Shown here piece by piece: positions 3,828-42,907 of a stretch of 64,000 nucleotides of DNA (position 1 is the stretch's first letter; every line of letters starts with the position of its first letter). The translations under genes and the position numbers were made by a program. The notes under the pieces were generated by a model. The model saw nothing but the letters and a program-made list of their open reading frames with translations, was not told the origin of the DNA and did no database searches. The stretch comes from Candidatus Omnitrophota bacterium (GTDB lineage: Bacteria > Omnitrophota > Gorgyraeia > S143-82), in assembly GCA_015494465.1 (NCBI GenBank), contig WGBD01000007.1:67009-131008 (forward strand), in the 5' to 3' direction.

Positions 3828-5564
3828 TTACCTCTCCGCAGTCACCTCGGTCAGCCCTTCCAATCCTGCCTCCGGAGCCACCTCGGGCAAGCTGGGAGAC
3901 AACAAGGCCTGGGCCTCAGGGCTCACCGTGGCCACATCCACCTCAGGCACCGGGGAAGCGGGATCCACTATCTTACTGGTGAGGAAGATGAAGAGGTCGT
4001 TCTTGTACTTATAGGTAAACTTGCGGGAGAAGAGTTTTCCCAATACCGGCAGATCGGATACCAACGGCACCCCTATCTTACCCGTCTTCTCCTCGTCCCG
4101 CATCAGCCCACCTATCACCAAGGTATCGCCATTACGCATCATCACCTGCGTCTCCGCCTCCCGGACCTCCATTATCGGATAAGACACGGCGGTACCCTCG
4201 GTTGCATCCCCCAAGCCCGGTGAGACCTCACCGCTCTTGTTCACTACCGCAGGGTGCACTATTAGGTTGATGTAATCGTCACCACATATCTGAGGCACCA
4301 CATTCAACTGTATACCTATGTCCTGATAGTACTCAAGGTCAACGGACAGACTAACCGTACCGTTGCTTATCTCCTTGTCTATGCTGAGGATGGGATACTT
4401 CGTACCGACTAGGATAGACGCCTCCTGATTGGAGACGGTCAGGACCTTCGGAGTGGACAGGACATTCGCATCCGCCATGTCCTCCAAGGCCCGCAGGCCC
4501 AGGGTAAACTGATTACCAGTGAGGTGTTTAAATATAAACGATCCTCCCCCAGTAAATGTCTCGCGATTAATGGGATCTAGCCCTACCCCTGAGACCTGCT
4601 CATAGCCATAAGGATCTACATAATTGGCTCCCAGCAATAAGTGCACGACCTCCCTTACTGCCTCGCCCTTGTAGGACACATCCATATATGGGCTAAACGT
4701 AGTCCCGGTCATTACCTGTGCACCCAGATCCACCAGCTTCCTCCAATCCACCTCCACTATACTCGACTCGATGAGGACCAATTTGGGCATCTTGTCTATC
4801 TCCTTCAGGACCGCCTCCACCTTATCCAAGACGCTTTTGATGTCCGTTACTATCAGCTTCTTGGACCGGCTCTTTCTCTCGCTCTGCTTGCGCTCACTCT
4901 TCTCCAGCTTGCCCCGCTCTTCGCTGGCTACGAACTTCCATCCCCCAAGGTAGGTCATCTCCAGTATCTCTGCAGTACCTCGGGGAGAAAGGAAGCTCTC
5001 GACGATCTTGAGGGCATCGCCTGCGTCTATGTAGGTGAGGTCGAAGACGCGAGTCTCTACCTCCTTGACCTGCTGTAACTCCATCTGCTTCTTTTTGGTC
5101 TCTATGATCTTATCGATGGGTTTTACTATAATCGTATTACCTACCCGCTCGTATCCGTATCCATAGGCCTCTACCATGGTCTTGATCGCCTCTTCCCACG
5201 GCGTATCGGTGAAGGAGATGCTGGTGATCGTATCGGTAACTTCAGGGGAGATCACGATGTTTACCCCTGCGTCCTCGGCAATGCTCGCCAGGGCCTGGGC
5301 CAAGGTCATGTCGTTGCTGAAACTGACCGTGATCCTGGCCTCCCCTTCAGTCTTGGCATCCTTCTCAGCCGTGTCCGTCTCGCTTGCTTTCTTTTCGGAC
5401 TCGACTGACTTGGACGAGGTAGGGGTATCAACCGCCGATCCTTCCTCCGACTGGACAGTGGACTTGCTTACAGCTCCTGTATCAGTGGATCCCAAAGAAA
5501 CAGAGACCAGGACTCCAAGGCTAAATAGAGCCACTAACAAAGGAATGGATATCTTGCGGATCAT
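3828..5564 (-). CDS. outer-membrane secretin (PilQ/GspD family)
   Basis: The C-terminal secretin domain carries the signature GGLMRDEEKTGKIGVPLVSDLPVLGKLFSRKFTYKYKNDLFIFLTSKIV. Upstream of it are N0/secretin_N-like repeats (ITVSFSNDMTLAQALASIAEDAGVNIVISPEV) and a signal peptide. The ATG at 5562-5564 has a strong SD (AAAAGGAGGGGG) 6 nt upstream. The ORF track start at 5588 is 8 codons further upstream. Confidence 0.8.
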   Translation of the reverse strand: MIRKISIPLLVALFSLGVLVSVSLGSTDTGAVSKSTVQSEEGSAVDTPTSSKSVESEKKASETDTAEKDAKTEGEARITVSFSNDMTLAQALASIAEDAGVNIVISPEVTDTITSISFTDTPWEEAIKTMVEAYGYGYERVGNTIIVKPIDKIIETKKKQMELQQVKEVETRVFDLTYIDAGDALKIVESFLSPRGTAEILEMTYLGGWKFVASEERGKLEKSERKQSERKSRSKKLIVTDIKSVLDKVEAVLKEIDKMPKLVLIESSIVEVDWRKLVDLGAQVMTGTTFSPYMDVSYKGEAVREVVHLLLGANYVDPYGYEQVSGVGLDPINRETFTGGGSFIFKHLTGNQFTLGLRALEDMADANVLSTPKVLTVSNQEASILVGTKYPILSIDKEISNGTVSLSVDLEYYQDIGIQLNVVPQICGDDYINLIVHPAVVNKSGEVSPGLGDATEGTAVSYPIMEVREAETQVMMRNGDTLVIGGLMRDEEKTGKIGVPLVSDLPVLGKLFSRKFTYKYKNDLFIFLTSKIVDPASPVPEVDVATVSPEAQALLSPSLPEVAPEAGLEGLTEVTAER

Positions 5565-5621
5565 TGCCCCCTCCTTTTTGCCCCCCAATCCGATCTATCA
5601 TCGATTTAAATATAACACATT

Positions 5622-6029: not shown

Positions 6030-6367
6030 AAGCGCCCCCCTCGATAGAAACAACTGCGGTTGCCCGTGTGACAGGCTATACCGCCCACCTGTTCCACCTT
6101 GATTAATATTGTATCCCCATCGCAATCATAATACAACTCTTTTACCAACTGATAGTGACCGGAGGTCTCACCCTTCACCCAAACCTTCTGACGGGACCTG
6201 CTCCAATAGGTGGCCTTGCCGGTCTCTATGGTCTGCTTCAGGGTATCTTTGTTCATGTAGGCCAACATTAGCACATCGCCTTTCTCGTAGTCTTGGACTA
6301 TCACTGGGATCAAGCCCTTCTCGTCGAACTTGATCTCATCCAAGAAAGAAGTGTCCAACTTATTCAT
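6026..6367 (-). CDS. hisI: phosphoribosyl-AMP cyclohydrolase HisI (monofunctional)
   Basis: The 113-aa ORF has [89 protein letters not shown], the canonical HisI metal-binding CDGD...CH...C core. No other his genes are in the window. Confidence 0.9.
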
Positions 6368-7745
6368 CCTCTCCTCCTTTCTCCTTCAATCCGTACTTCT
6401 CCAGGAGATTGTACAACTGGGTCCGACTTATACCCAAGAGATTAGCAGAAAGGGATATGTTCCCGTTCGTCCGCTCCAATGCAGAGGTCAAGAGGCGTCT
6501 CTCTAACTCCTCCTTTGCCCGTTTCAGATTAAAGGATTCGCCTAGGTTGAGGGGAAACACCCCGCTAGATCCGCCGGAGGGTATCTGGATGTGCTCTCCC
6601 TTGATTAGATGGGAATCGCACAGGATCACCGCTCGCAAGATCACATTCTCTAGTTCCCTCACATTGCCTGGCCAATGGTAAGAATACAGCTTCTCGATGG
6701 CCGACTCCGACAGGCCTATAATCCTCCTCTTCATCTGGGAGGAGAGTTTATCCACGAAGTACTGGGCCAACAAGATGATGTCTTCTCCCCTTTCTCTCAA
6801 CGGGGGCAGGTGTATGTTTATCACATTGAGCCTATAGAAAAGGTCCTCCCGGAAGGTCCCTTCCTCCACCTTCTTGGAGAGGTCCGCATTGGTTGCGGAG
6901 ATGATCCGGATGTCCAAAGGCACATCCTCTACCGAGCCTACGGGTTGTATCACCTTCTCTTGGAGGACGCGCAGGAGTTTTACCTGGAGGTGAAGGGGCA
7001 ATTCCCCTACCTCGTCCAAGAACAAGGTCCCACCGTTGGCCAGCTCAAACCTGCCTTTCTTGTTGCTCACTGCCCCAGTAAAGGCCCCCTTTTTGTGACC
7101 AAAAAGCTCGCTTTCCAGGAGGTGTTCGGGGATGGCCCCGCAGTTTACCGCCACGAACGGGCCCTCCTTTCTGGCGCTGAGATTGTGGATCGCCCGGGCG
7201 ACCAATTCCTTGCCCGTACCAGACTCTCCAGTAATCAGGACCGTAAAGTCCCCGTGGGCAACATGTTGAATCAGGTCGAAGACCCTCTGCATCTGGGTGG
7301 ACTTACCCACCAATCCCGCAAAGCCTATGTCCCCAGGCAATCGGTAGCTCTTTATGGCCTCCTCGATCTCCCTTATGTGCAGGGCACGGGTGAATATGAT
7401 CTTTAGCTCTTCCACCTCTATGGGTTTCACATAGAAGTCGAAGGCCCCATTCCTGATCGCGGAGATGGCGTTCTCGCGGGTGTCGTTAGCGGTAATCACC
7501 ACGACCTTGAGGAGCGGGTCTCGGGAGAGCATCTCGGAGAGGAGTTGCAGGCCTTCGTTTCCTTCCGGGCTCCCCGAGAGGTTTATGTCCAATCCGACCA
7601 ACTGGGGACGGAAGGACTCCAGTAAAGAAAAGACCTCCTCCCTATTACCTCTGGACAGGGCCACCTCGTAGTCCTCGGCAAAGGCCCACTTCAATTGATT
7701 CAGTATCGAGGGATCGTCGTCTATTATCAACAGCCTCGGCTTCAT
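6360..7745 (-). CDS. prsR: sigma-54-dependent response regulator (REC + AAA+ + Fis-HTH), probable PEP-CTERM-box regulator PrsR
   Basis: The REC domain is [15 protein letters not shown]...DINLSG. The sigma-54 activator core has the Walker [16 protein letters not shown] and the GAFTGA loop ([11 protein letters not shown]), followed by ESELFGH and a C-terminal HTH. The PrsR call rests on adjacency to a multi-TM histidine kinase, EpsI and the exosortase. PilR is the alternative. Confidence 0.7.
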
Positions 7746-7747
7746 TC

Positions 7748-9562
7748 TTAATATACCTCTTTCCCGAACCTTAATATCACCTCTGTACCGACATTCCGTT
7801 CCGAGACCACCTCTATTCTACCGTTGCAGGTCTCGAGCAACGACTTGACCTCGTACATCCCTATACCCAATCCGCTCTCTTTGGTAGTGACGAATGGGCG
7901 AAAGAGCTTCTTCCTCACGAAATCTTCGTCCATCCCCGTACCGGTATCCTTTACTATTATCGACCATTCCCCTCTATCGTTTCGTTCGCTCCAGACGGAT
8001 ATCTCGCCTTCTCCTTTCTTGCGGATGGCGTCCACCGCGTTGAGGAGGAGGTTCTCCACGATCCGGGCGAAGGCAGACTTACTGCAGTTGAGAACCAAGG
8101 CCTCGTCAATGTCAACCTCGACCCGTATACCAGTGGCTCCCAGGTTAAGTCGTTCCAAGACCTCCTCAACCACCTCCCTAGGGCTGAAGCGAGCGGTATC
8201 GCCCTCTACGGAGCTAGACTTCCGATAAGAGGAAAGCCTGTCCACCACTGCCTTCAGCCTCGCTAGTACCTCCTTTATCGTGGTGTAAGCGTCGGAGACG
8301 AATTCTGGGTTGTCTTTGTTCTTTTTCCAATTCATCACCAACAGGGAAAGACCGGAAACCGAATTCTTCACATCGTGGACCAGAAAGGAGACCACCCGAT
8401 TGAACTGGGCAAACTGCTGGATCTCCATGAGCTGACGCGACAGCTTGGATAAAGTAAGCATAACCGATATGTTCCGGCCTATCATGTAGATTAGATCCGA
8501 AGGTACCGTCCCCTTATCCAACCCCTTCAACAACATGAGCCCCACCAACTGCTTGCGAAATACCAACGGGATTATGAGTTCCACATCCTTGAATAGCTCC
8601 TCTTCCAGGCCGATTCGCCATATCTCTTCGGGAGATACGGGCCCATCCTTCAACCAAAGATACTTCTTAACCTCAGGTGGTAAGGAATCGAACGCCTCGG
8701 ACTCCCCCTTCCACACGATCGACAGATCCCCTACCCCAAACCTAGCCCTGAAGTAATCCCTAGCTCGCCTTACTATCTCGTCTTCGTCGGTTATGTCCTC
8801 AATAGTAGTGAGAAAGTCGTCCCACTCCTTGACCGGATCGTAATGTTGGTAACCTAGGATCCCCTGGAAAAGGCCCTTCATCCACCTCTTAACCCCTTCA
8901 CCGAAGAACAATATCAACCCCAAACTCACCAGACCCAGGGCTATCAGCGTCGACCAAAAGACCCTGACATCCAATCGCAATACATAGACGAGCTTGACTA
9001 TACCCGCAATCACCAGCATGTACAAGGCAGACAGCATCAGCAATGCCGAGGCGTCTACGACCTTTACGGTAGCAGTAGATCTACGGTCCCAGGTGCGCAA
9101 GGCCATGTAAAGGGAGATCAGCCCTACGCACAGCAGTGCCCACACGACGGGCCAGAGAAGACGGTTAAACATCAAAAACCAGGCCCCTAAGAAGATAAAG
9201 GCCAAGTTGTGGACCAGCAACCATACATAGGCAGAGGCCGACCCCTTGCGCAGGACCGTATCCGAGGAAAGGATGAGCAAGGCATGGCCGATAATCGCCC
9301 CTGAGATGAATATCTGGCCCCAAAGACCAAGGCTGGGATAGACCGACTCCACTGCAGACAACCCGGCGAACAGTAACAGCAACATTCCCAACCAGGGCAC
9401 CACATACCTGTACTTCCTCGCCACCGTACGGTGGGCCAGACCAAACAGGTGGAGTATCCAGGATAGGAAGAGGCCCAGCAAAACGATGTTCGGAGGAATC
9501 CAACCGCTCAGAAATCTACCCAGCAAGCCGACGAAGAAGAAGAGGAGGTAGAGTCCCAACAT
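7748..9562 (-). CDS. prsK: multi-pass membrane sensor histidine kinase, probable PEP-CTERM system kinase PrsK
   Basis: The N-terminal half is a run of about 8-10 hydrophobic helices. The C-terminal part has a GAF-like region, the H-box FLVHDVKNSVSGLSLL and an HATPase_c domain (ENLLLNAVDA...DTGTGMD...GLGIGMYEV). An ATG at 9560-9562 has GAGAGAGG upstream. The ORF track start is a TTG at 9592. Confidence 0.7.
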   Translation of the reverse strand: MLGLYLLFFFVGLLGRFLSGWIPPNIVLLGLFLSWILHLFGLAHRTVARKYRYVVPWLGMLLLLFAGLSAVESVYPSLGLWGQIFISGAIIGHALLILSSDTVLRKGSASAYVWLLVHNLAFIFLGAWFLMFNRLLWPVVWALLCVGLISLYMALRTWDRRSTATVKVVDASALLMLSALYMLVIAGIVKLVYVLRLDVRVFWSTLIALGLVSLGLILFFGEGVKRWMKGLFQGILGYQHYDPVKEWDDFLTTIEDITDEDEIVRRARDYFRARFGVGDLSIVWKGESEAFDSLPPEVKKYLWLKDGPVSPEEIWRIGLEEELFKDVELIIPLVFRKQLVGLMLLKGLDKGTVPSDLIYMIGRNISVMLTLSKLSRQLMEIQQFAQFNRVVSFLVHDVKNSVSGLSLLVMNWKKNKDNPEFVSDAYTTIKEVLARLKAVVDRLSSYRKSSSVEGDTARFSPREVVEEVLERLNLGATGIRVEVDIDEALVLNCSKSAFARIVENLLLNAVDAIRKKGEGEISVWSERNDRGEWSIIVKDTGTGMDEDFVRKKLFRPFVTTKESGLGIGMYEVKSLLETCNGRIEVVSERNVGTEVILRFGKEVY

Positions 9563-9563
9563 C

Positions 9564-10151
9564 TCACAGCCTCTCTCGCACGCTTGCGTCAAAGGCCCTT
9601 ATCAATTCCTCTCCAGCCGAGACCTCCCGAGGCGACAATACCAAGCGAATCAGATAAGTCCGCTTGGGGTGACCGGTCAAGGCGTAGTAGAGGTACTTTA
9701 GCTGATAAAGGTAATAGTTGTCCAGGTATTCGCTACCCAAGGCATACCAATACCACACCAATTGGTCGCCAGCCCTGTCCCGCACGGTCAACTGATTGAT
9801 CCTGTGCCCGTTGACAACCACCTTGCGTTTACCCAAGACCTTCTCCCCACCACCCTTAAGACACACCTCCGGAGGGTGCACCACCCTTCGATCGCTTTCG
9901 CTGACTATCACCGTAAGGTAGACGCTCCCACCAGGACAAGTATACCTCCTAGCCAGGACATTCCTGGTCCCCAAGATCTTATACACATAATCCTTGAGAG
10001 TAAGGGATTCCGAACTGCACTCCCCGAGTTCTTCAGGGACGACATTGGCCAGGTCCACTGACCTATTCACATCCCTGCCTACCTTGAAAAAGAGGTAATT
10101 CCCCGCGCAGGCAACCACGAACACCAAGAGGACTAATCCAATCCTCTTCAT
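9564..10151 (-). CDS. epsI: EpsI-family exosortase-associated protein
   Basis: The 195-aa ORF has a signal/anchor (MKRIGLVLLVFVVACAG). Its size, position immediately downstream of the exosortase and composition (YTCPGGSVYLTVIVSESDRRVVHPPEVCLKGGG) match the EpsI family that pairs with XrtA. Confidence 0.6.
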   Translation of the reverse strand: MKRIGLVLLVFVVACAGNYLFFKVGRDVNRSVDLANVVPEELGECSSESLTLKDYVYKILGTRNVLARRYTCPGGSVYLTVIVSESDRRVVHPPEVCLKGGGEKVLGKRKVVVNGHRINQLTVRDRAGDQLVWYWYALGSEYLDNYYLYQLKYLYYALTGHPKRTYLIRLVLSPREVSAGEELIRAFDASVRERL

Positions 10152-33013: not shown

Positions 33014-33050
33014 ACTCCATCACTCCCCTTCTCTGACTAATTATGCAGAG

Positions 33051-33078
33051 ATTTTACTATCCTTACAAAATATTTCAA
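33051..33078 (-). promoter_or_regulatory. candidate sigma-70 promoter for rpmE
   Basis: The minus strand reads TTGAAA - 16 nt - TAAAAT. This is followed by GGGGAG (SD) and the rpmE ATG. Confidence 0.35.
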
Positions 33079-33104
33079 GGATTTTTCATCCCCTCAGGTC
33101 AGGT

Positions 33105-34211
33105 TTACCTGTCTATCTCCGGTGGGCAGATGCCGAAACTGGACAGGTATATGGGGACATCCTCTATCCGGGCCCCTTTGAGCATCTCCTGTATCATAGC
33201 AGTCCCGGTGGTGTAAGAGGGCCCTCGGACATGCACGCGATAGGGGTTTCCACTCTTGCCGTCGAACCGCATGTAATAGCCGTACTCCCCGTTGGTGGAC
33301 TCCACCACCTGATAGGTCTGACCCGCGGGAGGAATCCACTTCTTGTAGTTTATCGGCTTGTTGAAGACCTTGCCCTTGGGCATCTTATCCAGGACCTGAC
33401 GGATGATGTCTATGCTCTGCTCTATCTCCATCCGCTTTAATATCATCCGGGAATAGGCATCTCCGTCCTTGAGGGTTACCACCTCGAAGTCTATCTCCGG
33501 ATAGGCCTCGTAGGCGTAGATCTTTCTCATGTCCACCGGCTTTCCCATCGCCCTGACCGCGGGACCGGTGAGACAGTACTTCTTGGCCAGTTTCTCGGTG
33601 ACCACGAACCTGCCCTTGGTCCGGAAGACGAAGAAACTGTTGTGGTAAAAGGTCCGGTCGTAATCGACGAGTCTCCTCTCTATGTAATCCAAGACCTCCC
33701 TCACCCTATCCTCAAACCCCTCTGGCAGATCCCTGCGCACCCCACCGGGGACTATGTAGATGTGATAGACCCGCGCTCCGGTCAACCACTCGAACAGGTC
33801 CAATATGAAGTCCCTGTCCGCAAAGGCCCAGTTCATAACCGTGTATATACCAAGTCCTCCGCACATGAACCCGAGGTTCAGGAAGGTCGCAGCGATCCGC
33901 GCCAGTTCCAAGACCATCGTCCGGATGTACTTTGCCCGCGGGGGGACCTCTATCCCGCATATCGCCTCTATACAACGGGCGTAGACCTCCTCGTTGATGT
34001 CCGGCTCGGGTACGCATATTCGGGGTATGATGGAGACATTCTGCATCAGGTTGCGGTGCTCCATCAACTTCTCAAAGGAGCGGTGCAGGAAGCCGTACTC
34101 CGGCTCCATGTGTACGATGGTATCCCCCTCCAGCCACAGGTGCATACAGGAGTTACCCGCAGCACCGGGATGGTTAGGGCCTATGAATAACTCAACCCTT
34201 CTTTCCGCCAT
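33105..34211 (-). CDS. NuoD / [NiFe]-hydrogenase large-subunit homologue (Mbx/MbsL-like) with degenerate NiFe site
   Basis: The 49-kDa-family fold starts at MAERRVELFIGPNHPGAAGNSCMH. At the N-terminal ligand position, RICVPEP replaces RxCGxC. At the C-terminal position, FGICPPEIDR replaces DPCxxC. Only 2 of the 4 NiFe cysteine positions are therefore kept. The ORF track start at 34256 would overlap nuoC by 65 nt. The start chosen here is the internal MAERRV. Confidence 0.8.
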   Translation of the reverse strand: MAERRVELFIGPNHPGAAGNSCMHLWLEGDTIVHMEPEYGFLHRSFEKLMEHRNLMQNVSIIPRICVPEPDINEEVYARCIEAICGIEVPPRAKYIRTMVLELARIAATFLNLGFMCGGLGIYTVMNWAFADRDFILDLFEWLTGARVYHIYIVPGGVRRDLPEGFEDRVREVLDYIERRLVDYDRTFYHNSFFVFRTKGRFVVTEKLAKKYCLTGPAVRAMGKPVDMRKIYAYEAYPEIDFEVVTLKDGDAYSRMILKRMEIEQSIDIIRQVLDKMPKGKVFNKPINYKKWIPPAGQTYQVVESTNGEYGYYMRFDGKSGNPYRVHVRGPSYTTGTAMIQEMLKGARIEDVPIYLSSFGICPPEIDR

Positions 34212-34689
34212 AGTCCCTCTCTCCGTAGTGTTCCAAAGAGAACCTGATGGAATCAAACGACTTCCTCATCGGGAACCGCGGATGGGCAGGATCGTTGCCC
34301 TCGAATATAAACGGCTTATCGTAATCCGGATTCCCTGCGAAGTGGAGCCCGAACATCTCGTATATCTCCCTCTCGTAGAACTGCGCGTGGGGCCACAGGT
34401 GCATCACCGTGGGCTGGCGATCGGTTTCGTAATCCAACAGGCATGCCAGGAACAACCTCTGCTCCATAGAGAAGGAATAGAGGTTGTAAATCAACTCACA
34501 GTGCCTGTCGTCTCCCAGATCCACGCAGGTTATCGTGGCTAAGTAATCAAAGCCCGTCGCATAAAGGTCCTCTATTGCCTGCGGAACCTTATTCTTATCC
34601 AGCCGGGCGTAGAGGATCCCACCTGCCTCCTCTTTCACCTCTGCAGAGAGACTCTCTAAAAACCTGATTAAGTCCTTTTTATCCTTCAT
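34192..34689 (-). CDS. NuoC-like (30 kDa) subunit
   Basis: The 165-aa ORF has LATITCVDLGDDRHCELIYNLYSFSMEQRLFLACLL...ERE(I)YEMFGLHFAGNPD, typical of NuoC/MbhK. Confidence 0.8.
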   Translation of the reverse strand: MKDKKDLIRFLESLSAEVKEEAGGILYARLDKNKVPQAIEDLYATGFDYLATITCVDLGDDRHCELIYNLYSFSMEQRLFLACLLDYETDRQPTVMHLWPHAQFYEREIYEMFGLHFAGNPDYDKPFIFEGNDPAHPRFPMRKSFDSIRFSLEHYGERDYGGKKG

Positions 34690-34702
34690 ACCTCACACCT
34701 GC

Positions 34703-35248
34703 CTATACATCCGCGAGTATCTTCCTCTGATTTGCCTTGTACCAGTCGTAGCGTTCGGCGTAGTCTATCCACCCGCCGGGCAGTTTCTTCCTTATCCTCT
34801 CCTTTATCTCCAGTATCCCCTTCAAGACCGCCTCGGGTCTGGGCATGCAACCCGCAATGTAGATGTCCACCGGTATGTAGTCAGAAAGGCGGTTGATGGT
34901 GATGTAGGAATCCCAATAGTGTCCACCGTTGATGGTGCAGGAGCCAAATCCAATCACATACTTGGGGGCCTGCATCAACTCGTAGGACCATATCACCCGC
35001 TTGAGGGTCTTTAGAGACAGGTACCCGGTAATCAAGAGGACATCTGCCTGCCTCGGCGTGGCCATAGGGGCTATGCCAAAGCGGGTCATATCGTAACGGG
35101 AGGTCATCGTCGGGGGCAACTCTATCGCCCCGCAACCGGTACAGTAGTGGAGCAACCAGATAGAATTCTTACGCGCCCAGTCCCAAAACCCCCTCAATAT
35201 CGCGTTGTTTTCCTTTGCGTACTCTACATGCTCTGGGCACTGAGCCAT
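34703..35248 (-). CDS. NuoB-like (20 kDa, hydrogenase small-subunit homologue) with complete 4-Cys Fe-S site
   Basis: The four cysteines sit in HYCTGCGAIE, GFGSCTINGG and IAGCMPRPE. These are the N2-type [4Fe-4S] ligands. Confidence 0.85.
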   Translation of the reverse strand: MAQCPEHVEYAKENNAILRGFWDWARKNSIWLLHYCTGCGAIELPPTMTSRYDMTRFGIAPMATPRQADVLLITGYLSLKTLKRVIWSYELMQAPKYVIGFGSCTINGGHYWDSYITINRLSDYIPVDIYIAGCMPRPEAVLKGILEIKERIRKKLPGGWIDYAERYDWYKANQRKILADV

Positions 35249-35265
35249 AATCTATACCTCCGACT

Positions 35266-36168
35266 CTAAAACACCTTCCAGCCCAGATAGAGGAGCCAAC
35301 CTATTAGTGCCAAGACCACCGGTTTGGTCCAGTACATCTTTACCGCCCTCTGGGTAGTGGTCCTGGCCATCACCGCGCTTATCCATATCAGGACGAAGAA
35401 GACCGCCAGCATCTTCAGGTAAAACACCACGAAGTTGCTCGCCCCGCCCAAGAACAGGTCCACGAACAGGGCACAAGCGGTGTAGTAGTGAAGTGCCATG
35501 TAGATGAACAGGTACCCCAAAAACTTCCCCGAATACTCCACCATCGGCCCGGACGCGATCTCACTGGGGGCGATGATGATGTCAAACGGGTGTTTACCCA
35601 TCTCCGCTATCATCACCCAGAAGTAGACCACCGCAAACAGGGGCATTTTCACTATGTACCAATTGCTAATCCCTCCCGCCTGAGCGGATATCACATCCAT
35701 GAAGTTTGCGCTCCCGGTGTAGGAGATGATGCCCAACAGCACCATCACCAACGGCAGGTCGTAGCCCATCATCAACATCAGGGCGCGGGATATACCTATG
35801 CTGGCGTAGGGATTCTTTGCCTGGGCGGTACCCAAGGCCATCCCCAAGGGGGCAATCGTGAGTATGTACATCAGGGCAACGATGTCCGCCTGGGTGGACA
35901 GGACCGGCCTGTTGGCGAATGGAACGAAGTAAACCACCAGAGCAGCTCCCGCAAGGGCCATCCACACCCCGAGGTCAAAGACCCATCCGTAGGAGACCGG
36001 TCTTTGCTTGGAGAGCAACTTCACCACATCTATAAACGGCTGAATCAACGGAGGTCCGTACCTGCGCTGGATCCTCGCAGTTATTCGAGTACCGATACCC
36101 ATAAAGGATATCCCTATGAGAAAGCAGACTATAGGCAGACCAATCATCCCCAGTACGGTCATCGTCAA
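35266..36168 (-). CDS. NuoH / HycD / MbxM-like membrane subunit
   Basis: The 300-aa ORF has 8 helices. The motif RITARIQRRYGPPLIQPFIDVVKLL is the NuoH-family signature. Confidence 0.85.
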   Translation of the reverse strand: MTMTVLGMIGLPIVCFLIGISFMGIGTRITARIQRRYGPPLIQPFIDVVKLLSKQRPVSYGWVFDLGVWMALAGAALVVYFVPFANRPVLSTQADIVALMYILTIAPLGMALGTAQAKNPYASIGISRALMLMMGYDLPLVMVLLGIISYTGSANFMDVISAQAGGISNWYIVKMPLFAVVYFWVMIAEMGKHPFDIIIAPSEIASGPMVEYSGKFLGYLFIYMALHYYTACALFVDLFLGGASNFVVFYLKMLAVFFVLIWISAVMARTTTQRAVKMYWTKPVVLALIGWLLYLGWKVF

Positions 36169-37757
36169 CTCCCTTTACTGACCAGCAGAGACAATGCCAC
36201 TATCAATCCGCTCAAGGTCAACATTATGTAGGCCCCGTAGGTTGCCAACCGACCGTTGTACAAGCCACGCAAGACGAGACCGAGCCCTGCTATGTACTCT
36301 TTCCAGAACCCCGCCAGCCAGCCCAAAGAGAAGAGGTCCACGAAGGCCTTACCCAACCTGTTTACCGGAGCGTAAAAATTATAACTGTAGTCCCACAATC
36401 TTATCTGCTCAGGCAGATAGGCCGCTGCGGTGTATCCTTCGGTATCCGGGGCGTAGCGATGCTTGGGGAGAAGAATCCAAAACAGGATCACTACTACTCC
36501 CAAAAGCAGACCAAAGACCTCCAATACAAGAGATAAATTTACCAGACCTATACTTGTCTTGGTTATAGTTACTGGATCAAAAATTCCCGTGAGGGCTCTA
36601 CTTGTTAGACCCATAAACGGTTTCACATATGCTCCTATCAAAAAAGAGACCAGTCCCGAAACGACAAGAGGGATTATCTGTAGGGGATTCATCTCCTTAA
36701 CGAGGGAGATAGACGCCTTCTTTCGGCCCAAGAATATAGAGTGCAAGAGCCTATAAACATACAGGAACGACCCCACCCCGGCGACGAAGAAGAGGAGCAC
36801 CGGAAGGAGTCTGCCCTTGGAGATGAAGGCCTCGTACATAAGCCACTTGGAATTGAATCCACCCATCGGAGGGACACCGGCAAGGGATATCCCCAGCATA
36901 AGGAAAAAGAGGAAACTGACCGGCATCCTCCTGACGAAGTCCCCCATAGCGGTGTACTCGGTGGAACCGATCTTCCTCCAGATGTAGATCACCACGCTGA
37001 ACATCCCCAGTTTTATCAACATGTGATTTATGTAGTGCAGGACCGCACCCGATACGCTCACTGCCGACCAGAGCAGTACGCTGGCAAATATAAAGGTCAC
37101 CTGAGACAGGCTGGAGAAGGACAGGGCCTCTATTGCGTCCTCGCTCCCTACCGCCTTGAATGCAGACCATATCGCGGTAATACCCGCAAGGTATATAAAC
37201 AGGTTCTGCCATACGGCCAGATTCGGCAGGGAGGGCAACTCGGATACGGTGCGCAGGATCCCAAAGACGCCCAACTTACTGATTATAGCGGAAAGGAACA
37301 ACACGAACCGTTTGTCCGAACCCGTATACAGGTCCCCAATCCAGAAGTTGAAGGGTATCACCCCGGTCTTTACGACGAACGGCAGGCAGAACAGGGCTAT
37401 TGCGGTTGGGCCTGCCTTTGCCAGAGAAGATAGTGCAGTGGATCCGGTTACCGCGTAGGTATAACCTATGGCTGAGAGCATGGCAAACTCGCCCAAGAGG
37501 GATACCCACAGATACCCAAAGGCCTTGCGAGGATTGTTGCTCAAGATAAAGGTAAGCCAGGTGCTCGCGGACCAGAAGAGGAAGAAGTAGAGCATGTCCT
37601 TGGTGGAGTAAAGCCCTACCAGTACCAGGGTAAGGAGCAATATACCGAGAATAGGCCACGGCCTGCGGGTATACCTATCCCCAGCCAACAGGAAAAGTAT
37701 CTGCAGGCCCGCCAGTCCCAGAGTCAGCCAGGTAAACAGAAGCCCCAATCTATCCAT
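36165..37757 (-). CDS. proton-conducting antiporter-like subunit (NuoL/M/N / MrpD / MbxH' family)
   Basis: The 530-aa protein has about 14 helices and the conserved antiporter core (LSGAVLHYINHMLIKLGMF, WLMYEAF). Confidence 0.8.
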   Translation of the reverse strand: MDRLGLLFTWLTLGLAGLQILFLLAGDRYTRRPWPILGILLLTLVLVGLYSTKDMLYFFLFWSASTWLTFILSNNPRKAFGYLWVSLLGEFAMLSAIGYTYAVTGSTALSSLAKAGPTAIALFCLPFVVKTGVIPFNFWIGDLYTGSDKRFVLFLSAIISKLGVFGILRTVSELPSLPNLAVWQNLFIYLAGITAIWSAFKAVGSEDAIEALSFSSLSQVTFIFASVLLWSAVSVSGAVLHYINHMLIKLGMFSVVIYIWRKIGSTEYTAMGDFVRRMPVSFLFFLMLGISLAGVPPMGGFNSKWLMYEAFISKGRLLPVLLFFVAGVGSFLYVYRLLHSIFLGRKKASISLVKEMNPLQIIPLVVSGLVSFLIGAYVKPFMGLTSRALTGIFDPVTITKTSIGLVNLSLVLEVFGLLLGVVVILFWILLPKHRYAPDTEGYTAAAYLPEQIRLWDYSYNFYAPVNRLGKAFVDLFSLGWLAGFWKEYIAGLGLVLRGLYNGRLATYGAYIMLTLSGLIVALSLLVSKGS

Positions 37758-39246
37758 CTATGTCAACCCCTCCCTTGTAGGCAGAGACATCGTAAACGGT
37801 CTGGATGTATTCCTGCTTGGGTGTAAACCTCAATCGAGATAGATCCACACCTTTCTTCACCCCGTACACCGCCAAGACACCTGCACCCAACATCAACAGG
37901 GACAAGACCCACAAGGACAGCGCCTGCCCCGGGCAATCCTGTCTGCCCTCACCTTTTGCCGTCAACATAGCGGAACTTATGCGCATCAAGTAAATCGCTT
38001 CCAGGACCATAACTGCCAAGACTATCCCCACCAGTGCGTACATGTTTATGGCCAAGAGACCAAATACCAACGCGACCTTGCCCCAGAACCCCAGAAAGGG
38101 CGGTGCCCCCACGAGAGACAGGCCTCCCACCAGTCCCACCACCTTGTCGGAGAAGGCACACTCCTCGGCAAACCGATCCAGGTCCCGCGATCCGCTCCTA
38201 TCTGAGACCGCTCCCACCGAAAGGAAGAGCCCTCCCTTGGCCAACAGGTGGTTAAGGAAGAGGAGCACCAAGGCGACACTCCCCAGATCAGGTCGGGACA
38301 GACCAACCGCAAAGGCCATCAGCATCAGACCTATCTGCCCCGCCGAGGAATAGGCGAGCGCCCGCTTGACATCCCTCTGATAGAACCCGACTATCTCCGC
38401 AACCACAAAGGTCAACACCCCCAGGAGCAGCAGGGTCTGGCCCACCAGCAAGACTGCACCTTTGTCGAGGAAGAACAGGCCCACCAACCGCAGGAGCACA
38501 TACAACGCGGACTCTATCACTATCCCCGACAGGAGCGCAGAGACCGGGAAAGGCGCTGCGGGGTGGGCATCAAAGAGCCAAGCATTCAAAGGGAATACCC
38601 CGCTCTCCACGCCCAATCCTACCAGTATCAACACGAAAACCACCAGTTTAAACAACGCCGGCCAACTATTTGATAGATAAGATATCTGAGCCAGATTGAG
38701 GGTACCGGTCTTTCCGTATATCAGGGCTATGGCCAGCAGGAACAGAGAAGAGGCAACCGAGCCCAGGACGAAGTACTTGACGCCTGCCTCTATGGACTCC
38801 CTCTTCCTGTAATAGGCCACCAAGGCGAAGGAGACCAGACAGACTATCTCAAAGAAGACGAATACGTTGAACAGGTCCCCGCTCATTATCAGGCCGTTGA
38901 GCCCCGCCAAGAGTATCATCAACAGGCCGTAAAAGCGCCAGGAATACCTCGTGCCCGAACCTATAACCGCAAGAAACATCAACACATTCACAGAGAACAA
39001 CCACAAGCCTGCCAGAGGATCCAGGAAGAAGTTGATACCCAGAGGAGGCCTCCATCCCCCGAAGACTACCACTATGGAAGATCCCTTTAAGAGCGACAGC
39101 AGTACCTTCCCCGCCAACACGGTGGTTATCAGCGAGGTCAGGGCGGAGAATGCCTTTGCGGGGCGGTTCCCCAACCTGCCCACGAACCACATCAAAAACC
39201 CGGCCAGCAACGGCAGGGCAAATGTGTAGACCGCTAATTTCGTCAT
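37750..39246 (-). CDS. proton-conducting antiporter-like subunit (MrpD / MbxH family)
   Basis: The 498-aa protein has about 14 helices with the antiporter-core motifs (FFEIVCLVSFALVAY, LFLNHLLAKGGLFLSVG). It is the second paralogue in tandem. Confidence 0.8.
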   Translation of the reverse strand: MTKLAVYTFALPLLAGFLMWFVGRLGNRPAKAFSALTSLITTVLAGKVLLSLLKGSSIVVVFGGWRPPLGINFFLDPLAGLWLFSVNVLMFLAVIGSGTRYSWRFYGLLMILLAGLNGLIMSGDLFNVFVFFEIVCLVSFALVAYYRKRESIEAGVKYFVLGSVASSLFLLAIALIYGKTGTLNLAQISYLSNSWPALFKLVVFVLILVGLGVESGVFPLNAWLFDAHPAAPFPVSALLSGIVIESALYVLLRLVGLFFLDKGAVLLVGQTLLLLGVLTFVVAEIVGFYQRDVKRALAYSSAGQIGLMLMAFAVGLSRPDLGSVALVLLFLNHLLAKGGLFLSVGAVSDRSGSRDLDRFAEECAFSDKVVGLVGGLSLVGAPPFLGFWGKVALVFGLLAINMYALVGIVLAVMVLEAIYLMRISSAMLTAKGEGRQDCPGQALSLWVLSLLMLGAGVLAVYGVKKGVDLSRLRFTPKQEYIQTVYDVSAYKGGVDIDG

Positions 39247-39602
39247 CCCGCCAGATCCTTCAGTTCAGAGACATCGGTGGTACCAAACCGCCTGTGCATC
39301 CACACCGCCATCCCCAGCCCAACTGCCAGAAGACCGAGTCCTATGACGATAGCGGTGAGCACCAAGGCCTGGGGCACCGGATCCACGACCTTGCCGACTG
39401 CAGAGGCCTGCAGTTCCTTGCTGAACAATATTGGGGCAATCCTTCCCCGCACATAGCCGATACTGACGATGAGCAGGTTCACCCCCGACTCTAGTACCGA
39501 CAGACTTATCAGTATCTTTACAAAGTCCCGGTTCAGGAAGACACCCATCAGTCCCAGACCTATCAGAAACACGCTAAGGGCGTAGAAGTCAAGCGCGTTC
39601 AT
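39243..39602 (-). CDS. MrpC / NuoK-like (chain 4L) subunit
   Basis: The 119-aa protein has 3 helices. The motif LSVFLIGLGLMGVFLNRDFVKILISLSVLESGVNLLIV is characteristic of MnhC/NuoK. Confidence 0.8.
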   Translation of the reverse strand: MNALDFYALSVFLIGLGLMGVFLNRDFVKILISLSVLESGVNLLIVSIGYVRGRIAPILFSKELQASAVGKVVDPVPQALVLTAIVIGLGLLAVGLGMAVWMHRRFGTTDVSELKDLAG

Positions 39603-40314
39603 CCTCTTCTCCCGAACTGGTAAACCTCTCCAGTATCGCCACGAACTCGCTGGCCACCTTCACCCCAATGAAAGCGTACAGGACCGGCAGGACACCAGCA
39701 CTCAGCAGGGTCCCCGGTACACCCTTCGGACCGAAACTGTAGAGGAAACTCCCGTACTTCACCAATCCAACCAAGGCCAAGGCCACGAATCCTGCCCCCA
39801 TCAAAGACTCCAGGGCATGAACCAACCCCCCAAATCCGGACTCCTTCTCCCTCTTCAATATCAATTTAAGAAGGAGCCCGGAGGAGATAACGACACCACC
39901 CTGAAATCCCCCTCCCGGGCTCACATGCCCCTGAGAGACGATGTATATGCCTATCAGGATAATAAGATACGGAAGAAACCTGCTTGCCACCCGAAGGACG
40001 AAGTTCTCCTCCCTCTGCCACATACCTGCCCCCGGCAAGAGGAACAATCCCACTGCCATAGCGGAGGCGAACAGGACCGTAACCTCCCCAAGGGTATCCA
40101 ATCCCCGGAAGGACAACACCACCGAGGTAACCAGATTCGTGGCCCCGGTGGAATTCACACCCATCTTTATGTAGTCCTTAGACACCAGCATCTTATCCTG
40201 CCCGTAGGGAATCTGGGTGTAGAGCAGATATATTAACAGCCCGCTGAATGCAAGGACCACCAAGGAGGCGATTATACCCGATATGTCGTACTTCCTATTT
40301 ATCCCTTCCAGCAT
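39589..40314 (-). CDS. MrpB / MnhB-domain membrane subunit
   Basis: The MnhB domain is NSTGATNLVTSVVLSFRGLDTLGEVTVLFASAMAVG, followed by extra C-terminal helices. Confidence 0.7.
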   Translation of the reverse strand: MLEGINRKYDISGIIASLVVLAFSGLLIYLLYTQIPYGQDKMLVSKDYIKMGVNSTGATNLVTSVVLSFRGLDTLGEVTVLFASAMAVGLFLLPGAGMWQREENFVLRVASRFLPYLIILIGIYIVSQGHVSPGGGFQGGVVISSGLLLKLILKREKESGFGGLVHALESLMGAGFVALALVGLVKYGSFLYSFGPKGVPGTLLSAGVLPVLYAFIGVKVASEFVAILERFTSSGEEDERA

Positions 40315-40316
40315 AT

Positions 40317-40556
40317 CTAGTCCCCTCTGATACCCATCTTACGCAAGGCAAACAGGAAGAGGGCTGTGGACAGGCCTGCTGAAATCACCGCCTCCGCCAT
40401 GGCCACATCCGGTGCCTGTAGGAGATAGAAACTCGCGGTCAATCCCACGCTCGCCAAGGCCAGCGCTACCACCGACGAGACCCGCCCTCGGGAAAAGACC
40501 GCAATCGCTGCAGTAAATCCGGTGAACAAGACGACTGCAAGGTAAATGTAACCCAT
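40317..40556 (-). CDS. small MbhD-like / DUF4040-type membrane subunit
   Basis: The 79-aa ORF has 2-3 helices. Its position and size match the MrpA-C-terminal-like MbhD/MbxD subunit. Confidence 0.55.
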   Translation of the reverse strand: MGYIYLAVVLFTGFTAAIAVFSRGRVSSVVALALASVGLTASFYLLQAPDVAMAEAVISAGLSTALFLFALRKMGIRGD

Positions 40557-40557
40557 C

Positions 40558-40827
40558 CTATTCCCCTTCTCCCCTCACCGCACGGGCAAGGACCGAGGCA
40601 GACACCGGCGCCCCCACCAGCACCAGCACCATTATCACCAGCAACTCCAACCACCAACCCGGTTTCAGACAGATAACCCCCGCTATCGTGGCGATCACCC
40701 CGAGAGTGGATGCCTTGGTCCCCGCCTGAAGACGGTTGAATACATCCGGCATGCGCACCAGCCCCAACCCCGAAAGGGCCAAAAAGAGCGCACCCACTAT
40801 CACCAAGACATACCCCACCGAAATCAT
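40558..40827 (-). CDS. MrpG / MnhG subunit
   Basis: The MnhG signature is LGLVRMPDVFNRLQAGTKASTLGVIATIAG. Confidence 0.7.
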   Translation of the reverse strand: MISVGYVLVIVGALFLALSGLGLVRMPDVFNRLQAGTKASTLGVIATIAGVICLKPGWWLELLVIMVLVLVGAPVSASVLARAVRGEGE

Positions 40828-41066
40828 CGTTCGATAAACCTCCCCACGACGATGCTCCCTATAAAACTCACCGCGGAAAGGGCAAGGGCCACATCCAGAT
40901 AGATCCTTACTTCAAACTCAAGGGCCAAAAGTACCAGCACCCCAACCAACACCGTAGTAAGCACATCCACCGCCACCATCCTGTTGGCAAAGTCCGGGCC
41001 TATAACGAACCGCAGAAGAGAAAGACCCACCGCAATCGTCAACAAGGCCACCAAGACCGGAATCAT
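40824..41066 (-). CDS. MrpF / MnhF subunit
   Basis: The 80-aa ORF has the MnhF-like motif LRFVIGPDFANRMVAVDVLTTVLVG. Confidence 0.7.
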   Translation of the reverse strand: MIPVLVALLTIAVGLSLLRFVIGPDFANRMVAVDVLTTVLVGVLVLLALEFEVRIYLDVALALSAVSFIGSIVVGRFIER

Positions 41067-41413
41067 GACTCCATCCTCTTAAGGATCCTCTCAAACCGTC
41101 CGCAGATCAACTCCTTGGCCTTTTCCTGAGGATACATCCCCGCCTTTATCCAGTGAACGGTCAACTCCTGCTCCTCAACATCCAGGGTCATCGTTCCCGG
41201 CGTCAAGGTGATAGAATTGGCCAAGATGAACTTCAACCAATCCGACTTCAGGTCCGTCCTGACCTTTACGAATCCCGGAGATATAGGCAGGGAGGGATTT
41301 ATCACCCTCAAGGCCACATCCAGATTTGCCTTCACCATCTCCACTAGGAGCACCACCAAGTAGATTGGGAAATTTATCACAAACTTTATCATACAAACAA
41401 TCCCTTCCACCAA
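41063..41413 (-). CDS. MrpE / MnhE subunit
   Basis: The 116-aa ORF has the MnhE-like pattern (NLDVALRVINPSLPISPGFVKV...LANSITLTPGTMTLDVEE). Confidence 0.7.
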   Translation of the reverse strand: MVEGIVCMIKFVINFPIYLVVLLVEMVKANLDVALRVINPSLPISPGFVKVRTDLKSDWLKFILANSITLTPGTMTLDVEEQELTVHWIKAGMYPQEKAKELICGRFERILKRMES

Positions 41414-41449
41414 ACAGAACCTGCCTAAAATTGAGTTTTATTTTACTGG

Positions 41450-41477
41450 TTCAGGTCCCGTTGTCAACACAATTTCT
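41450..41477 (-). promoter_or_regulatory. candidate sigma-70 promoter for the mrp/mbx-like operon
   Basis: The minus strand reads TTGACA - 16 nt - TAAAAT about 35 nt upstream of the mrpE ATG. It lies immediately after the tcdA stop. Confidence 0.35.
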
Positions 41478-41480
41478 CTT

Positions 41481-42194
41481 CTACCTGGAAAACAGGAAGA
41501 ATCTTACCATCTCAATCGCAACAGCGACAGGGGACAACACCCACGAGCCCAATACCTTTCTACGAGGGCGAGATGGCGAGGATTCCCCGAAGCTTCGGGG
41601 ATCTACCCCCTCTTCAAAGGTCACCACCGGGATTGGATCGCAAGGGACCTTCCAACGCTTCAACCTCCTCCTCAGCCGTGTCAACAAGGGATCCACGCGG
41701 ACCTCGGAGAGCACCTTCGCCTGGGGACGAACGGAGATAATCCCAGCAGAGGCCCCGGCACTTATCAAGGGTATACCGACCTGGACACAGTACCTCAATA
41801 GAAGGGCTTTACCGTTTAATCCATCAACGCAGTCAAACACGAAGTCGACCCCTTCGAAGCAACTGAAATCGTACCCCTTACCCACCGAATCAACGCACGA
41901 TTTCACCTCCGCTTTATCTCTGAGATAGGCCCTGACGGCCTCACAGACCACCTCTGCCTTGTAGCGCCCGACCTTACCCCAGTCAAAGAAGGCATAACGG
42001 TTGAAGTCTCCCACGGAAAGCCGATCGTCGTCCACCAGCACCCAGTGCCTTATCCCGAAAGGAAGGAGCAAGCGTACCACCCATCCTCCCACCGCCCCTA
42101 ACCCGACCACAGCTATACGCACCTTATCGTCGGGCACAGCGATAGAGTAGGCCCTTGCTAACAGGTGCAATCTATAGAATGGATCCTCGCTCAT
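41481..42194 (-). CDS. tcdA: ThiF/MoeB-family E1-like enzyme, probable tRNA threonylcarbamoyladenosine dehydratase TcdA
   Basis: The Rossmann dinucleotide loop is KVRIAVVGLGAVGGWVVRLL, with the TcdA-like region DFNRYAFFDWGKVGRYKAEV. The upstream 116 codons of the ORF (Gly/Arg/Pro-rich) are judged non-coding. The start chosen is MSEDPFYRL, which overlaps the tatD stop by 4 nt. Confidence 0.65.
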   Translation of the reverse strand: MSEDPFYRLHLLARAYSIAVPDDKVRIAVVGLGAVGGWVVRLLLPFGIRHWVLVDDDRLSVGDFNRYAFFDWGKVGRYKAEVVCEAVRAYLRDKAEVKSCVDSVGKGYDFSCFEGVDFVFDCVDGLNGKALLLRYCVQVGIPLISAGASAGIISVRPQAKVLSEVRVDPLLTRLRRRLKRWKVPCDPIPVVTFEEGVDPRSFGESSPSRPRRKVLGSWVLSPVAVAIEMVRFFLFSR

Positions 42195-42907
42195 CTCCTC
42201 AACAGGTCTTTGAAGTTGGCCTCTACTGCCTGCGCCACTTCCTCTTTTGGGACAGCCTTCCACTCCGCAATCTTCTCCACCACCTGTCCCAGTATCCGGG
42301 GACTTTGGGCCTGATAAGGCCAATCGCTCTCGACCAACAGCCTGTCTAAGCCAATCGTCTGAATCACTCTGCGTTTTTCCTTTGGCCATTTCAGGACCGT
42401 CGGCCCTAAAGAAAAATACACACCCGGCATGAGGGAAAACCTCTCCACATAAAAGGTACTGCCATTGTAAGCGTGGAGTATGACCCGAAGGTCTTTCCGT
42501 CCTCGTAGTATCTCCCACAGGTCTTTCCAGGCCCGGACGCAATGCACATTCAAGGGGAGTTTCCTCTCCTCTGCCAGAGAGACTGCTTTCTCAAATATCT
42601 CCAACTGGACAGAATAATCTGCACCCCACAACCTATCCAGGCCTACTTCCCCTATGCCCGCTATCCTCTGTAAATTCCTCTGGAGGGCATCCTTCCACCC
42701 TAACCAATCAAGGCCGTCCAGGTACCACGGATGGGCACCCAACATCAAACCTGCACCCGAATATTCATTAGAGACATTAAGAGCGGAGTAGAAGTCCTCA
42801 AGGTGCAAGGTGCAGAGGAATCCCCTCCAAGGAACAAATTCATCCAGTCCTGTCAAAGGAAGGTGATAATGGGCATCCGGCAACGAAGGTACGGTCTGAT
42901 CATCCAC
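42191..42907 (-). CDS. TatD-family metal-dependent hydrolase
   Basis: The TatD pattern is DAHYHL near the N-terminus, then LNVHCVRAW, ILHAYNGS and VESDWP. Confidence 0.75.
   Translation of the reverse strand: MDDQTVPSLPDAHYHLPLTGLDEFVPWRGFLCTLHLEDFYSALNVSNEYSGAGLMLGAHPWYLDGLDWLGWKDALQRNLQRIAGIGEVGLDRLWGADYSVQLEIFEKAVSLAEERKLPLNVHCVRAWKDLWEILRGRKDLRVILHAYNGSTFYVERFSLMPGVYFSLGPTVLKWPKEKRRVIQTIGLDRLLVESDWPYQAQSPRILGQVVEKIAEWKAVPKEEVAQAVEANFKDLLRR

Follow-up and report, generated by a model that had tools for sequence, protein, structure and literature searches.

The stretch of DNA analyzed here, 64,000 nucleotides from a Candidatus Omnitrophota bacterium that are referred to as the window throughout, carries on its minus strand (41413..33105) 12 co-directional open reading frames (ORFs), tightly packed or overlapping, which the ORF listing and Pfam assignments place in the order MbsA-B-C-D-E-G-H-H'-M-J-K-L. 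This order equals that of the first 12 genes of MBS (formerly Mbx), the sulfane-sulfur reductase bound to the membrane, and the question raised by the locus is how electrons would enter a complex of this kind when the gene for the NuoI-like subunit N does not follow as the 13th. An earlier note, made from the sequence alone, had recognized the archaeal-Mbx-like gene order with its duplicated antiporter subunit and with nuoH before nuoB, which the ORFs and Pfam matches confirm, and had placed the system at 33105-41480; the start of that region holds, whereas its end does not, as the outermost gene reaches only to 41413 (or 41392). It had further proposed that the electron input was missing or encoded elsewhere, and of these two options the second is the one that stands: the input subunit is encoded by a gene, here named after its product P0270, which lies next to fhs, the formate-tetrahydrofolate ligase gene. 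We consider it likely that the locus encodes an MBS/Mbx-type complex whose N subunit was not lost, its gene having moved to fhs in the form of a fusion of N with a GltD-type flavoprotein (N-GltD), and that the complex carries out sulfane-sulfur chemistry, the latter by analogy.

The N subunit is absent from both the operon and the 64-kb window. A motif scan for the CxxCxxCxxxC ferredoxin signature found none in the open frames among all six frames of the window, tblastn with two operon-encoded N-GltD proteins of relatives returned nothing in it (best E 0.41), and the 91-nt spacer that follows L holds no N remnant. The statement in the earlier note that there is no NuoI/MbxN subunit is thus true of the operon and the window and false of the genome, in which the P0270 fusion was found. 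NuoEFG are lacking from the operon and the window, as had been said, and the complex-I subunits NuoA and NuoJ were likewise not found in the window. Moreover, rpmE is indeed the next downstream gene (Pfam Ribosomal_L31, E 6e-34), 91 nt past the L stop codon. An assembly artefact at the L/rpmE junction was considered and rejected: a Logan contig of run SRR10312501 that is stored separately (L006; loci are denoted here by L and three digits, proteins by P and four digits) shows the same junction at 99.985% identity, and the operon ends at L in two related genomes as well.

The earlier note had proposed to look in the rest of the genome for an orphan nuoI/mbxN gene; P0270 is an MbxN-GltD fusion and the ortholog of the 13th operon gene of close relatives. 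A search with the fusion protein of the L007 relative yielded five close clusters (95, 81, 77, 73, and 74% identity), after which identity dropped to 49%, and P0270 is the second member of the cluster of P0154 (the 74% cluster). The protein of 605 amino acids (aa) is encoded at 576,665-578,482 on JALUEM010000002.1 of GCA_027052805.1 (781,960 bp), and the start of fhs lies 5 nt past the end of its gene. Residues 14-119 match MbsN (E 1.5e-29), the best match among NuoI-type chains, with all eight MbsN cluster cysteines in register and an N-terminal segment that aligns closely with that of MbsN. Residues ~155-605 match NfnB/GltD-type flavoproteins (E 1e-59 to 1e-73, e.g., 5JCA_L, 4YLF_B, and 6S6S_G) and contain two further [4Fe-4S] motifs along with GAGPSG for FAD (flavin adenine dinucleotide) and GGGNVA for NAD(P)H; neither NfnA nor GltB is encoded next to it as a partner. 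The window and the locus of P0270 do not overlap, and contigs of SRR10312501 carry both the window operon (L006) and P0270 (L099). Because of the same database sources and the same sequencing run, the P0270 gene almost certainly belongs to the window's own genome and lies on the same 782-kb contig. The concern voiced earlier that a version without N would have no known ferredoxin entry point consequently falls away, since an electron entry module of a known type is encoded.

The same split was found in further genomes. GCA_054035575.1 harbors an operon (L001) that ends at L and is followed by hisH and hisF, while its N-GltD gene (L090, encoding P0153 of the 73% cluster) is found on a different contig, flanked by fhs and a gene for aspartate kinase. 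P0154 is encoded directly upstream of fhs in GCA_054004955.1, GCA_054005615.1, and one ENA assembly, and GCA_054005615.1 possesses both a 12-gene operon (L095), the L of which is 97.8% identical to that of the window, and the separate N-GltD gene (L094). In total, three related genomes show the split layout, as against none of the 79 genome-collection loci with downstream sequence. In loci of all three lineages N-GltD is followed by fhs, which encodes formate-tetrahydrofolate ligase (FTHFS), with a gap of 0-6 nt, the upstream neighbors being different; N-GltD and fhs look like a conserved two-gene unit.

The identities of the N-GltD proteins to P0270 rank in the same order as the identities of the L proteins of the corresponding genomes to the window L: 95.7% for P0154 of the congener genomes (L, P0123, 97.8%), 78.8% for P0153 of GCA_054035575.1 (P0002, 83.4%), 74.7% for the operon-encoded protein of L007 (P0003, 81.8%), 69.0% for P0152 (P0004, 79.6%), and 49.7% for the protein of L003 (P0005, 56.1%). 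By this comparison P0270 is the ortholog of the operon-encoded N-GltD proteins. The possibility that the fhs-linked gene is a paralog and the operon copy was lost was considered and is not supported, as each genome examined, incomplete as these genomes are, has one close N-GltD cluster and the identities track L. Conservation is highest in the N domain, with 88% identity between the two split lineages as compared to 76% for the GltD part. Furthermore, the ratio of nonsynonymous to synonymous substitution rates (dN/dS) was determined between the window genome and its congener (L095 for the operon genes). It amounted to 0.028 for the whole P0270 gene and 0.019 for its N domain, and to 0.019 for J and 0.022 for L; the twelve operon genes ranged from 0.014 to 0.16 at dS of 0.5-0.8 (A 0.048, D 0.014, M 0.025), and L is 97.8% identical in protein at ~86% DNA identity. 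Since purifying selection acts on the operon genes and P0270 alike, both the operon and the relocated gene are functional and similarly constrained. Taken together, the N gene has been relocated out of the operon and not lost, because P0270 keeps the MbsN cysteines, follows L in its identities and is subject to strong purifying selection. The simplest interpretation is a single relocation in the ancestor shared by the three split genomes, with further rearrangement past L afterwards.

The sequence directly past the L stop codon differs in the three related genomes, being the rpmE spacer in the window (33014-33104), non-coding in L095 (11108-11436), and hisH in L001 (11111-11141). The window remains syntenic with the congeneric loci L095/L096 precisely as far as the stop codon of L, and the 329 nt past L in L095 contain stops in all frames and no N domain. 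The region just past L looks like a repeated rearrangement breakpoint.

How common operons of this type are, and what follows L in them, was assessed by a scan for the L-motif pattern in one genome per species, which confirmed at least 593 loci. L homologs with the motifs occur in Spirochaetes, Bacteroidales, Calditrichia, Ignavibacteria, Thermotogae, WOR-3, Caldisericota, Aminicenantes, Desulfurellales, Fermentibacteria, and others, and among the matches listed in this species-representative scan no L exceeded 56% identity to the window L. The region downstream of L was surveyed in the best 80 of the at least 593 loci, 76 of which were informative and 79 of which had any downstream sequence. 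An MbxN-like 2x[4Fe-4S] domain together with a GltD/NfnB-like domain directly follows L in 72 of the 76 informative loci, 71 times as a single ORF of ~600 aa, and a stand-alone N follows in the other four (three archaea and one Synergistota); of the remainder, three loci showed N and then the contig end and one had no downstream sequence. Hence, not one of the 79 loci with any downstream sequence was without N directly after L. The relative with L007/L008 likewise encodes a 601-aa N-GltD fusion as the 13th gene, and in the L003 relative the fusion lies right after L. An mbx-like operon in which the NuoI position is taken by a gltD-related flavoprotein has already been described (PMC4758237), and MBX of T. 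maritima is a 13-subunit MBS homolog that is upregulated by S0 (PMC9431562). Contrary to the earlier description of such complexes as sparsely characterized in bacteria, the operons are widespread and their flavoprotein-fused N is in the literature; the window complex is a regular member of a known, widespread and biochemically uncharacterized bacterial Mbx-like family. The near-universal N-GltD fusion in bacterial loci supports the view that the bacterial complexes may be NAD(P)(H)-linked, unlike archaeal MBS with its free N. As to variation within the family, a metagenome-assembled genome of Mesoaciditoga (L080 11100-14101) does not have the N domain and the GltD-like part joined in a single ORF, and a few kb downstream a further GltD-like gene (33-35% identity) is present in each of L043, L079, and L080, so that some lineages may have split or duplicated flavoprotein modules.

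The survey and the conservation of P0270 also bear on the view that the complex is truly N-less, i.e., that A-L work without NuoI/MbxN, the J cluster being fed by a soluble donor, and that N-GltD has a separate soluble role, for example in C1 metabolism with formate-tetrahydrofolate ligase. We regard this as unlikely, despite several observations that speak for it: the N gene stands apart from the operon in three genomes, its position 0-6 nt upstream of fhs in all three suggests co-transcription, and the operon has its own promoter-like site and continues under purifying selection without an adjoining N. Against these stand the facts that no part of the relocated protein is better conserved than its MbsN-like domain, with eight of eight cluster cysteines kept, an N-terminal segment closely aligned with MbsN and a dN/dS like those of J and L, and that N is lacking from none of the 79 loci; moreover, in the solved structures of MBS, of MBH (the hydrogenase bound to the membrane) and of complex I, the only way to the J cluster leads via the two N clusters (PMC7684303, PMC8165549). 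It is also rather improbable that N-GltD was uncoupled from the Mbx operon and recruited with fhs, either as a shared or switchable module or with A-L running without N via a different electron entry. If N were detachable or absent, a complex-I-type peripheral arm would for the first time have been shown to function with a NuoI-type subunit that can come off or is missing. That the operon is a decaying remnant, its complex non-functional after N loss and becoming a pseudogene, is very improbable, as its sole support is the absent 13th gene and the differing rearrangements past L in three relatives, whereas all 12 ORFs and the signature residues are intact and the low dN/dS values and the protein identity of L contradict it.

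The best solved-structure match of L is P. furiosus MbsL (6u8y_L, E 4.8e-94, 319 bits), as compared to 229 bits for Nqo4 and 151 bits for MbhL, so that the proposal in the earlier note of a bacterial MBS/Mbx-type complex, neither MBH nor complex I, is upheld. L carries the motifs RICVPEPD and FGICPPEIDR with one cysteine each, and the ligand alignment shows that two of the four NiFe cysteines are kept, in agreement with the claim that it is not a hydrogenase; the motif columns are invariant among 25 homologs, and the Pfam NiFeSe_Hases match to L is below threshold. In the alignment to 6u8y_L, RICVPEPD is identical in MbsL and CPPEIDR differs by one residue from CPPDIDR of MbsL. The Nqo4 quinone ligands H38 and Y87 fall within an alignment block without gaps, in which L has Ala and Val instead. 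J matches MbsJ best (6u8y_J, E 5.2e-64), residues 20-179 aligning with 9-168 over 160 residues without gaps, and its cysteines 36, 39, 104, and 134 align with C25, C28, C93, and C123 of MbsJ. Four cysteines are thus present in the NuoB-like subunit as the earlier note had stated, although they are not the N2 set of complex I, since J has CTGC and not the tandem CC, in a CxxC...C...C pattern as in MbsJ. H' matches MbsH' best (6u8y_X, E 7e-38), and the alignment extends to residue 520 of 530 (614 of 618 in MbsH'), i.e., to within 10 residues of the C terminus, so that H' carries the MbsH'-type C-terminal extension with the lateral helix and transmembrane helices 15-16, the source of loop 1. Because of the best matches to MbsL, MbsJ, and MbsH', the MBS signature residues and the replaced quinone ligands, the window complex is assigned by homology to the MBS/Mbx-type enzymes and is neither a hydrogenase nor a quinone-reducing complex I. 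As for Ehr complexes, Marreiros et al. in 2013 reportedly described them as having a small subunit set without a full Mrp module and neither NiFe nor quinone ligands; judged by this description only, MBS/Mbx appears to be the better assignment given that the Mrp module is complete and in MBS order and that L has the MbsL signature. In MbsL, C85 and C385 are a vestige of the NiFe site and dispensable for catalysis, and the first cysteine of MbsJ does not ligate the cluster, which leaves three cysteine ligands and a catalytic iron (PMC7684303). The half-degenerate NiFe site pointed out in the earlier note is consequently no peculiarity of the locus, the signature being the same as in MbsL (PMC7684303 and the alignment).

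Two candidates were rejected on these residues: a group 4 [NiFe] hydrogenase (MBH/Ech/Hyf), as the four-cysteine set RxCGxC ... DPCxxC is absent from L with its one cysteine per motif, and respiratory complex I of the NuoD/Nqo4 clade, as the quinone His/Tyr and the tandem CC in J are lacking and two NiFe-site cysteines are retained. It is very improbable that the locus encodes a simplified form of complex I, namely a Nuo11- or Ehr-type quinone reductase, or a [NiFe] hydrogenase of group 4 in place of an MBS-type enzyme, for while Pfam labels the proteins as complex I subunits, databases call L homologs 'NADH-quinone oxidoreductase subunit D' and Nqo4 is the second-best solved-structure match of L, the bit scores favor MbsL, the quinone ligands and the tandem CC are missing, only two of the four NiFe cysteines are present and a full Mrp-type module A-G stands in MBS order.

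For the MBS/Mbx-type complex with a relocated N we propose the following mechanism. The window encodes A, B, C, D, E, G, H, H', and M, which make up the membrane arm, together with the peripheral subunits J, K, and L, and P0270 would supply N as the fourth peripheral subunit. Electrons would pass between NAD(P)(H) at the flavin (FAD) and the two GltD-type clusters, and from there via the two clusters of the N domain to the proximal cluster of J, which would lie at the top of a chamber formed by L, J, and M. Turnover in the chamber would be coupled via the loop system of H', L, and M to the paths that protons take in H and H' as well as to the Mrp-like Na+/H+ module, in the way suggested for MBS (PMC7684303). 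If P. furiosus MBS is taken as the model, the reaction in the chamber is probably the reduction of sulfane sulfur (of the polysulfide type) at the cluster iron that lacks a cysteine ligand. The assembly of the P0270 product with the complex, the substrate, the direction of electron flow and any role of ferredoxin are inferred.

Several points weigh against this proposal. The link of the P0270 product to the complex rests on sequence comparison, and its placement on the contig of the window was derived from the shared sources and the sequencing run and not from mapped coordinates. About 86 kb of that contig (the window and L097) were examined, and a second stand-alone NuoI-like gene may lie elsewhere. 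The coupling of N-GltD to fhs at 0-6 nt in three lineages could mean that it serves another process. Moreover, the potentials of NAD(P)H (about -320 mV) and polysulfide (about -260 mV) leave little free energy for ion pumping, and because of this small driving force from NAD(P)H to polysulfide the part of the model that concerns substrate and direction is weak. Finally, an older proposal assigns ferredoxin:NAD(P)+ oxidoreductase activity to such complexes (PMC4758237; bioRxiv 10.1101/322537). Ferredoxin may also take part here, or the enzyme may work as a ferredoxin:NAD(P)+ oxidoreductase.

The locus itself adds little as a discovery, being a member of a known family with the gene for its supposedly missing input subunit at another place. 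The split arrangement offers a natural example of a separately transcribed flavoprotein subunit, apparently transcribed with fhs, and bears on the question of whether this subunit is a fixed or an exchangeable module. It also teaches a practical caution, namely that a subunit gene absent from an operon or a window is not thereby absent from the genome. The features of the operon and of the N-GltD locus are compiled in Table 1.

Table 1. Positions of the operon features in the window and of the N-GltD and fhs gene pair outside it.
Feature	Position	Strand	Basis or remark
Promoter-like site TTGACA-16-TAAAAT, 11/12	41440..41467	-	Consensus scan only; within the 67 nt that separate mbxA from the ThiF-like gene
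Subunit A, MnhE/MrpE-like, MbsA equivalent, 109-116 aa depending on start	41063..41413	-	Pfam MNHE, E 3.6e-32
Subunit B, MrpF-like	40824..41066	-	Pfam MrpF_PhaF, E 7e-14
Subunit C, MrpG/MnhG-like	40558..40827	-	Pfam PhaG_MnhG_YufB, E 1.7e-20
Subunit D, MbhD-like	40317..40556	-	Pfam MbhD, E 1.8e-16
Subunit E, MbhE and MnhB domains	39589..40314	-	Pfam MnhB, E 2.3e-17; MbhE, E 8.9e-8
Subunit G, MrpC/NuoK-like	39243..39602	-	Pfam Oxidored_q2, E 7.5e-24
Subunit H, MrpD-type antiporter-like, 498 aa	37750..39246	-	Pfam Proton_antipo_M, E 4e-56
Subunit H', second antiporter-like, C-terminal extension, 530 aa	36165..37757	-	Pfam Proton_antipo_M; MbsH' match
Subunit M, NuoH-like membrane anchor of the peripheral arm	35266..36168	-	Pfam NADHdh, E 1e-61
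Subunit J, NuoB-like, proximal [4Fe-4S]	34703..35248	-	Pfam Oxidored_q6; MbsJ match, E 5.2e-64
Subunit K, NuoC-like	34192..34689	-	Pfam Complex1_30kDa, E 4e-25
Subunit L, NuoD/MbsL-like, 368 aa from ATG	33105..34211	-	Pfam Complex1_49kDa; MbsL match, E 4.8e-94
L-rpmE spacer, 91 nt, with promoter-like site for rpmE and no N remnant	33014..33104	-	Position of N-GltD in relatives
N-GltD and fhs pair	L097 10001-13374 = record 576,665-580,038		Also L090, L092, L093, L094, L098, L099

With respect to the individual genes, an alternative ORF of L starts from TTG at 34256 and overlaps K more deeply. The Pfam match of subunit A spans only profile positions 40-144 of 145, and the subunit A of the L003 relative has 162 aa; the subunit may lack the first transmembrane helix of MbsA. 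Upstream, the operon is bordered by a ThiF-like and a TatD-like gene, and downstream rpmE is followed by a XerC-like recombinase gene and a TauE-family gene. The ThiF/E1-like gene (41481-42224) is situated 67 nt upstream of the operon on the same strand and adjoins the operon in the congener locus L095 too, but not in L001 or L003. At the relocated gene, the next ORF downstream of fhs (L097 13583-19867) has 2094 aa, combines a RelA_SpoT with a HATPase_c domain and encodes an unusually large protein with a (p)ppGpp-synthetase domain; it is also found in L092 (2085 aa) and L098.

Elsewhere in the window (1-64000), every annotated gene, and long non-nested ORFs generally, are on the minus strand and the GC skew is negative in every 2-kb bin, which places the whole window on one replichore with its genes co-oriented. 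A PEP-CTERM-type two-component pair is encoded at 6360-9592: the response regulator matches TIGR02915 (E 2e-161) above the curated cutoff, and the adjoining histidine kinase matches PrsK (TIGR02916) below its cutoff, with 228 as compared to 300 bits. A secretin gene (3828-5588) and sugar-nucleotide genes adjoin the pair, and together this neighborhood suggests an exopolysaccharide/exosortase locus. An Rfam scan of the 64-kb window gave zero matches.

Among known systems, MBS of P. furiosus (PDB 6U8Y, mbsABCDEGHH'MJKLN) resembles the window system in the order of its first 12 genes, in being the best match of L, J, H', and the N domain, in the L motifs and the cysteine spacing of J, and in the lack of quinone-binding residues. 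It differs in that its N is a free-standing protein of ~200 aa encoded last in the operon, whereas here a 605-aa NfnB/GltD-like flavoprotein, the gene of which lies elsewhere, has N as its N-terminal domain; furthermore, MBS is archaeal and the window system bacterial, with a shorter subunit A (109-116 aa), and the donor of MBS is ferredoxin, whereas here NAD(P)H may be the donor instead or in addition. Complex I (NDH-1; Nqo4, Nqo6, Nqo8, and Nqo9) shares the homologous core of the peripheral arm, with the three-loop coupling extended to the window system only by analogy with MBS (PMC7684303), and differs by its quinone ligands and tandem-cysteine N2, both absent here, while the Mrp-type sodium module is present here. 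MBH (PDB 6CFW) and the group-4 hydrogenases have in common with it an Mrp-like module and a NuoH/B/C/D/I-type peripheral module of shared ancestry, but MBH has one antiporter-like subunit and four NiFe cysteines as compared to two (H and H') and two in the window system, and MbhL scores 151 against 319 bits. The C-terminal part of P0270 is similar to flavoproteins of the NfnB/GltD/SudA type, to which P0270 adds the fused MbsN-type 2x[4Fe-4S] domain, without an adjacent NfnA/GltB. The closest relatives are the bacterial 13-gene Mbx-like operons, among them MBX of T. maritima (Degli Esposti, 2015, PMC4758237; PMC9431562), which show the same subunit set, order and N-GltD fusion and constitute the window locus's own family; P0270 shares 45-49% identity with the versions from Thermosipho, Spirochaetes, and others, and 75% with the most similar of those encoded in an operon. 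In these operons the fusion is the 13th gene right after L, a position taken in the window by rpmE, and the only unusual trait of the complex is that this 13th gene is detached and stands next to fhs.

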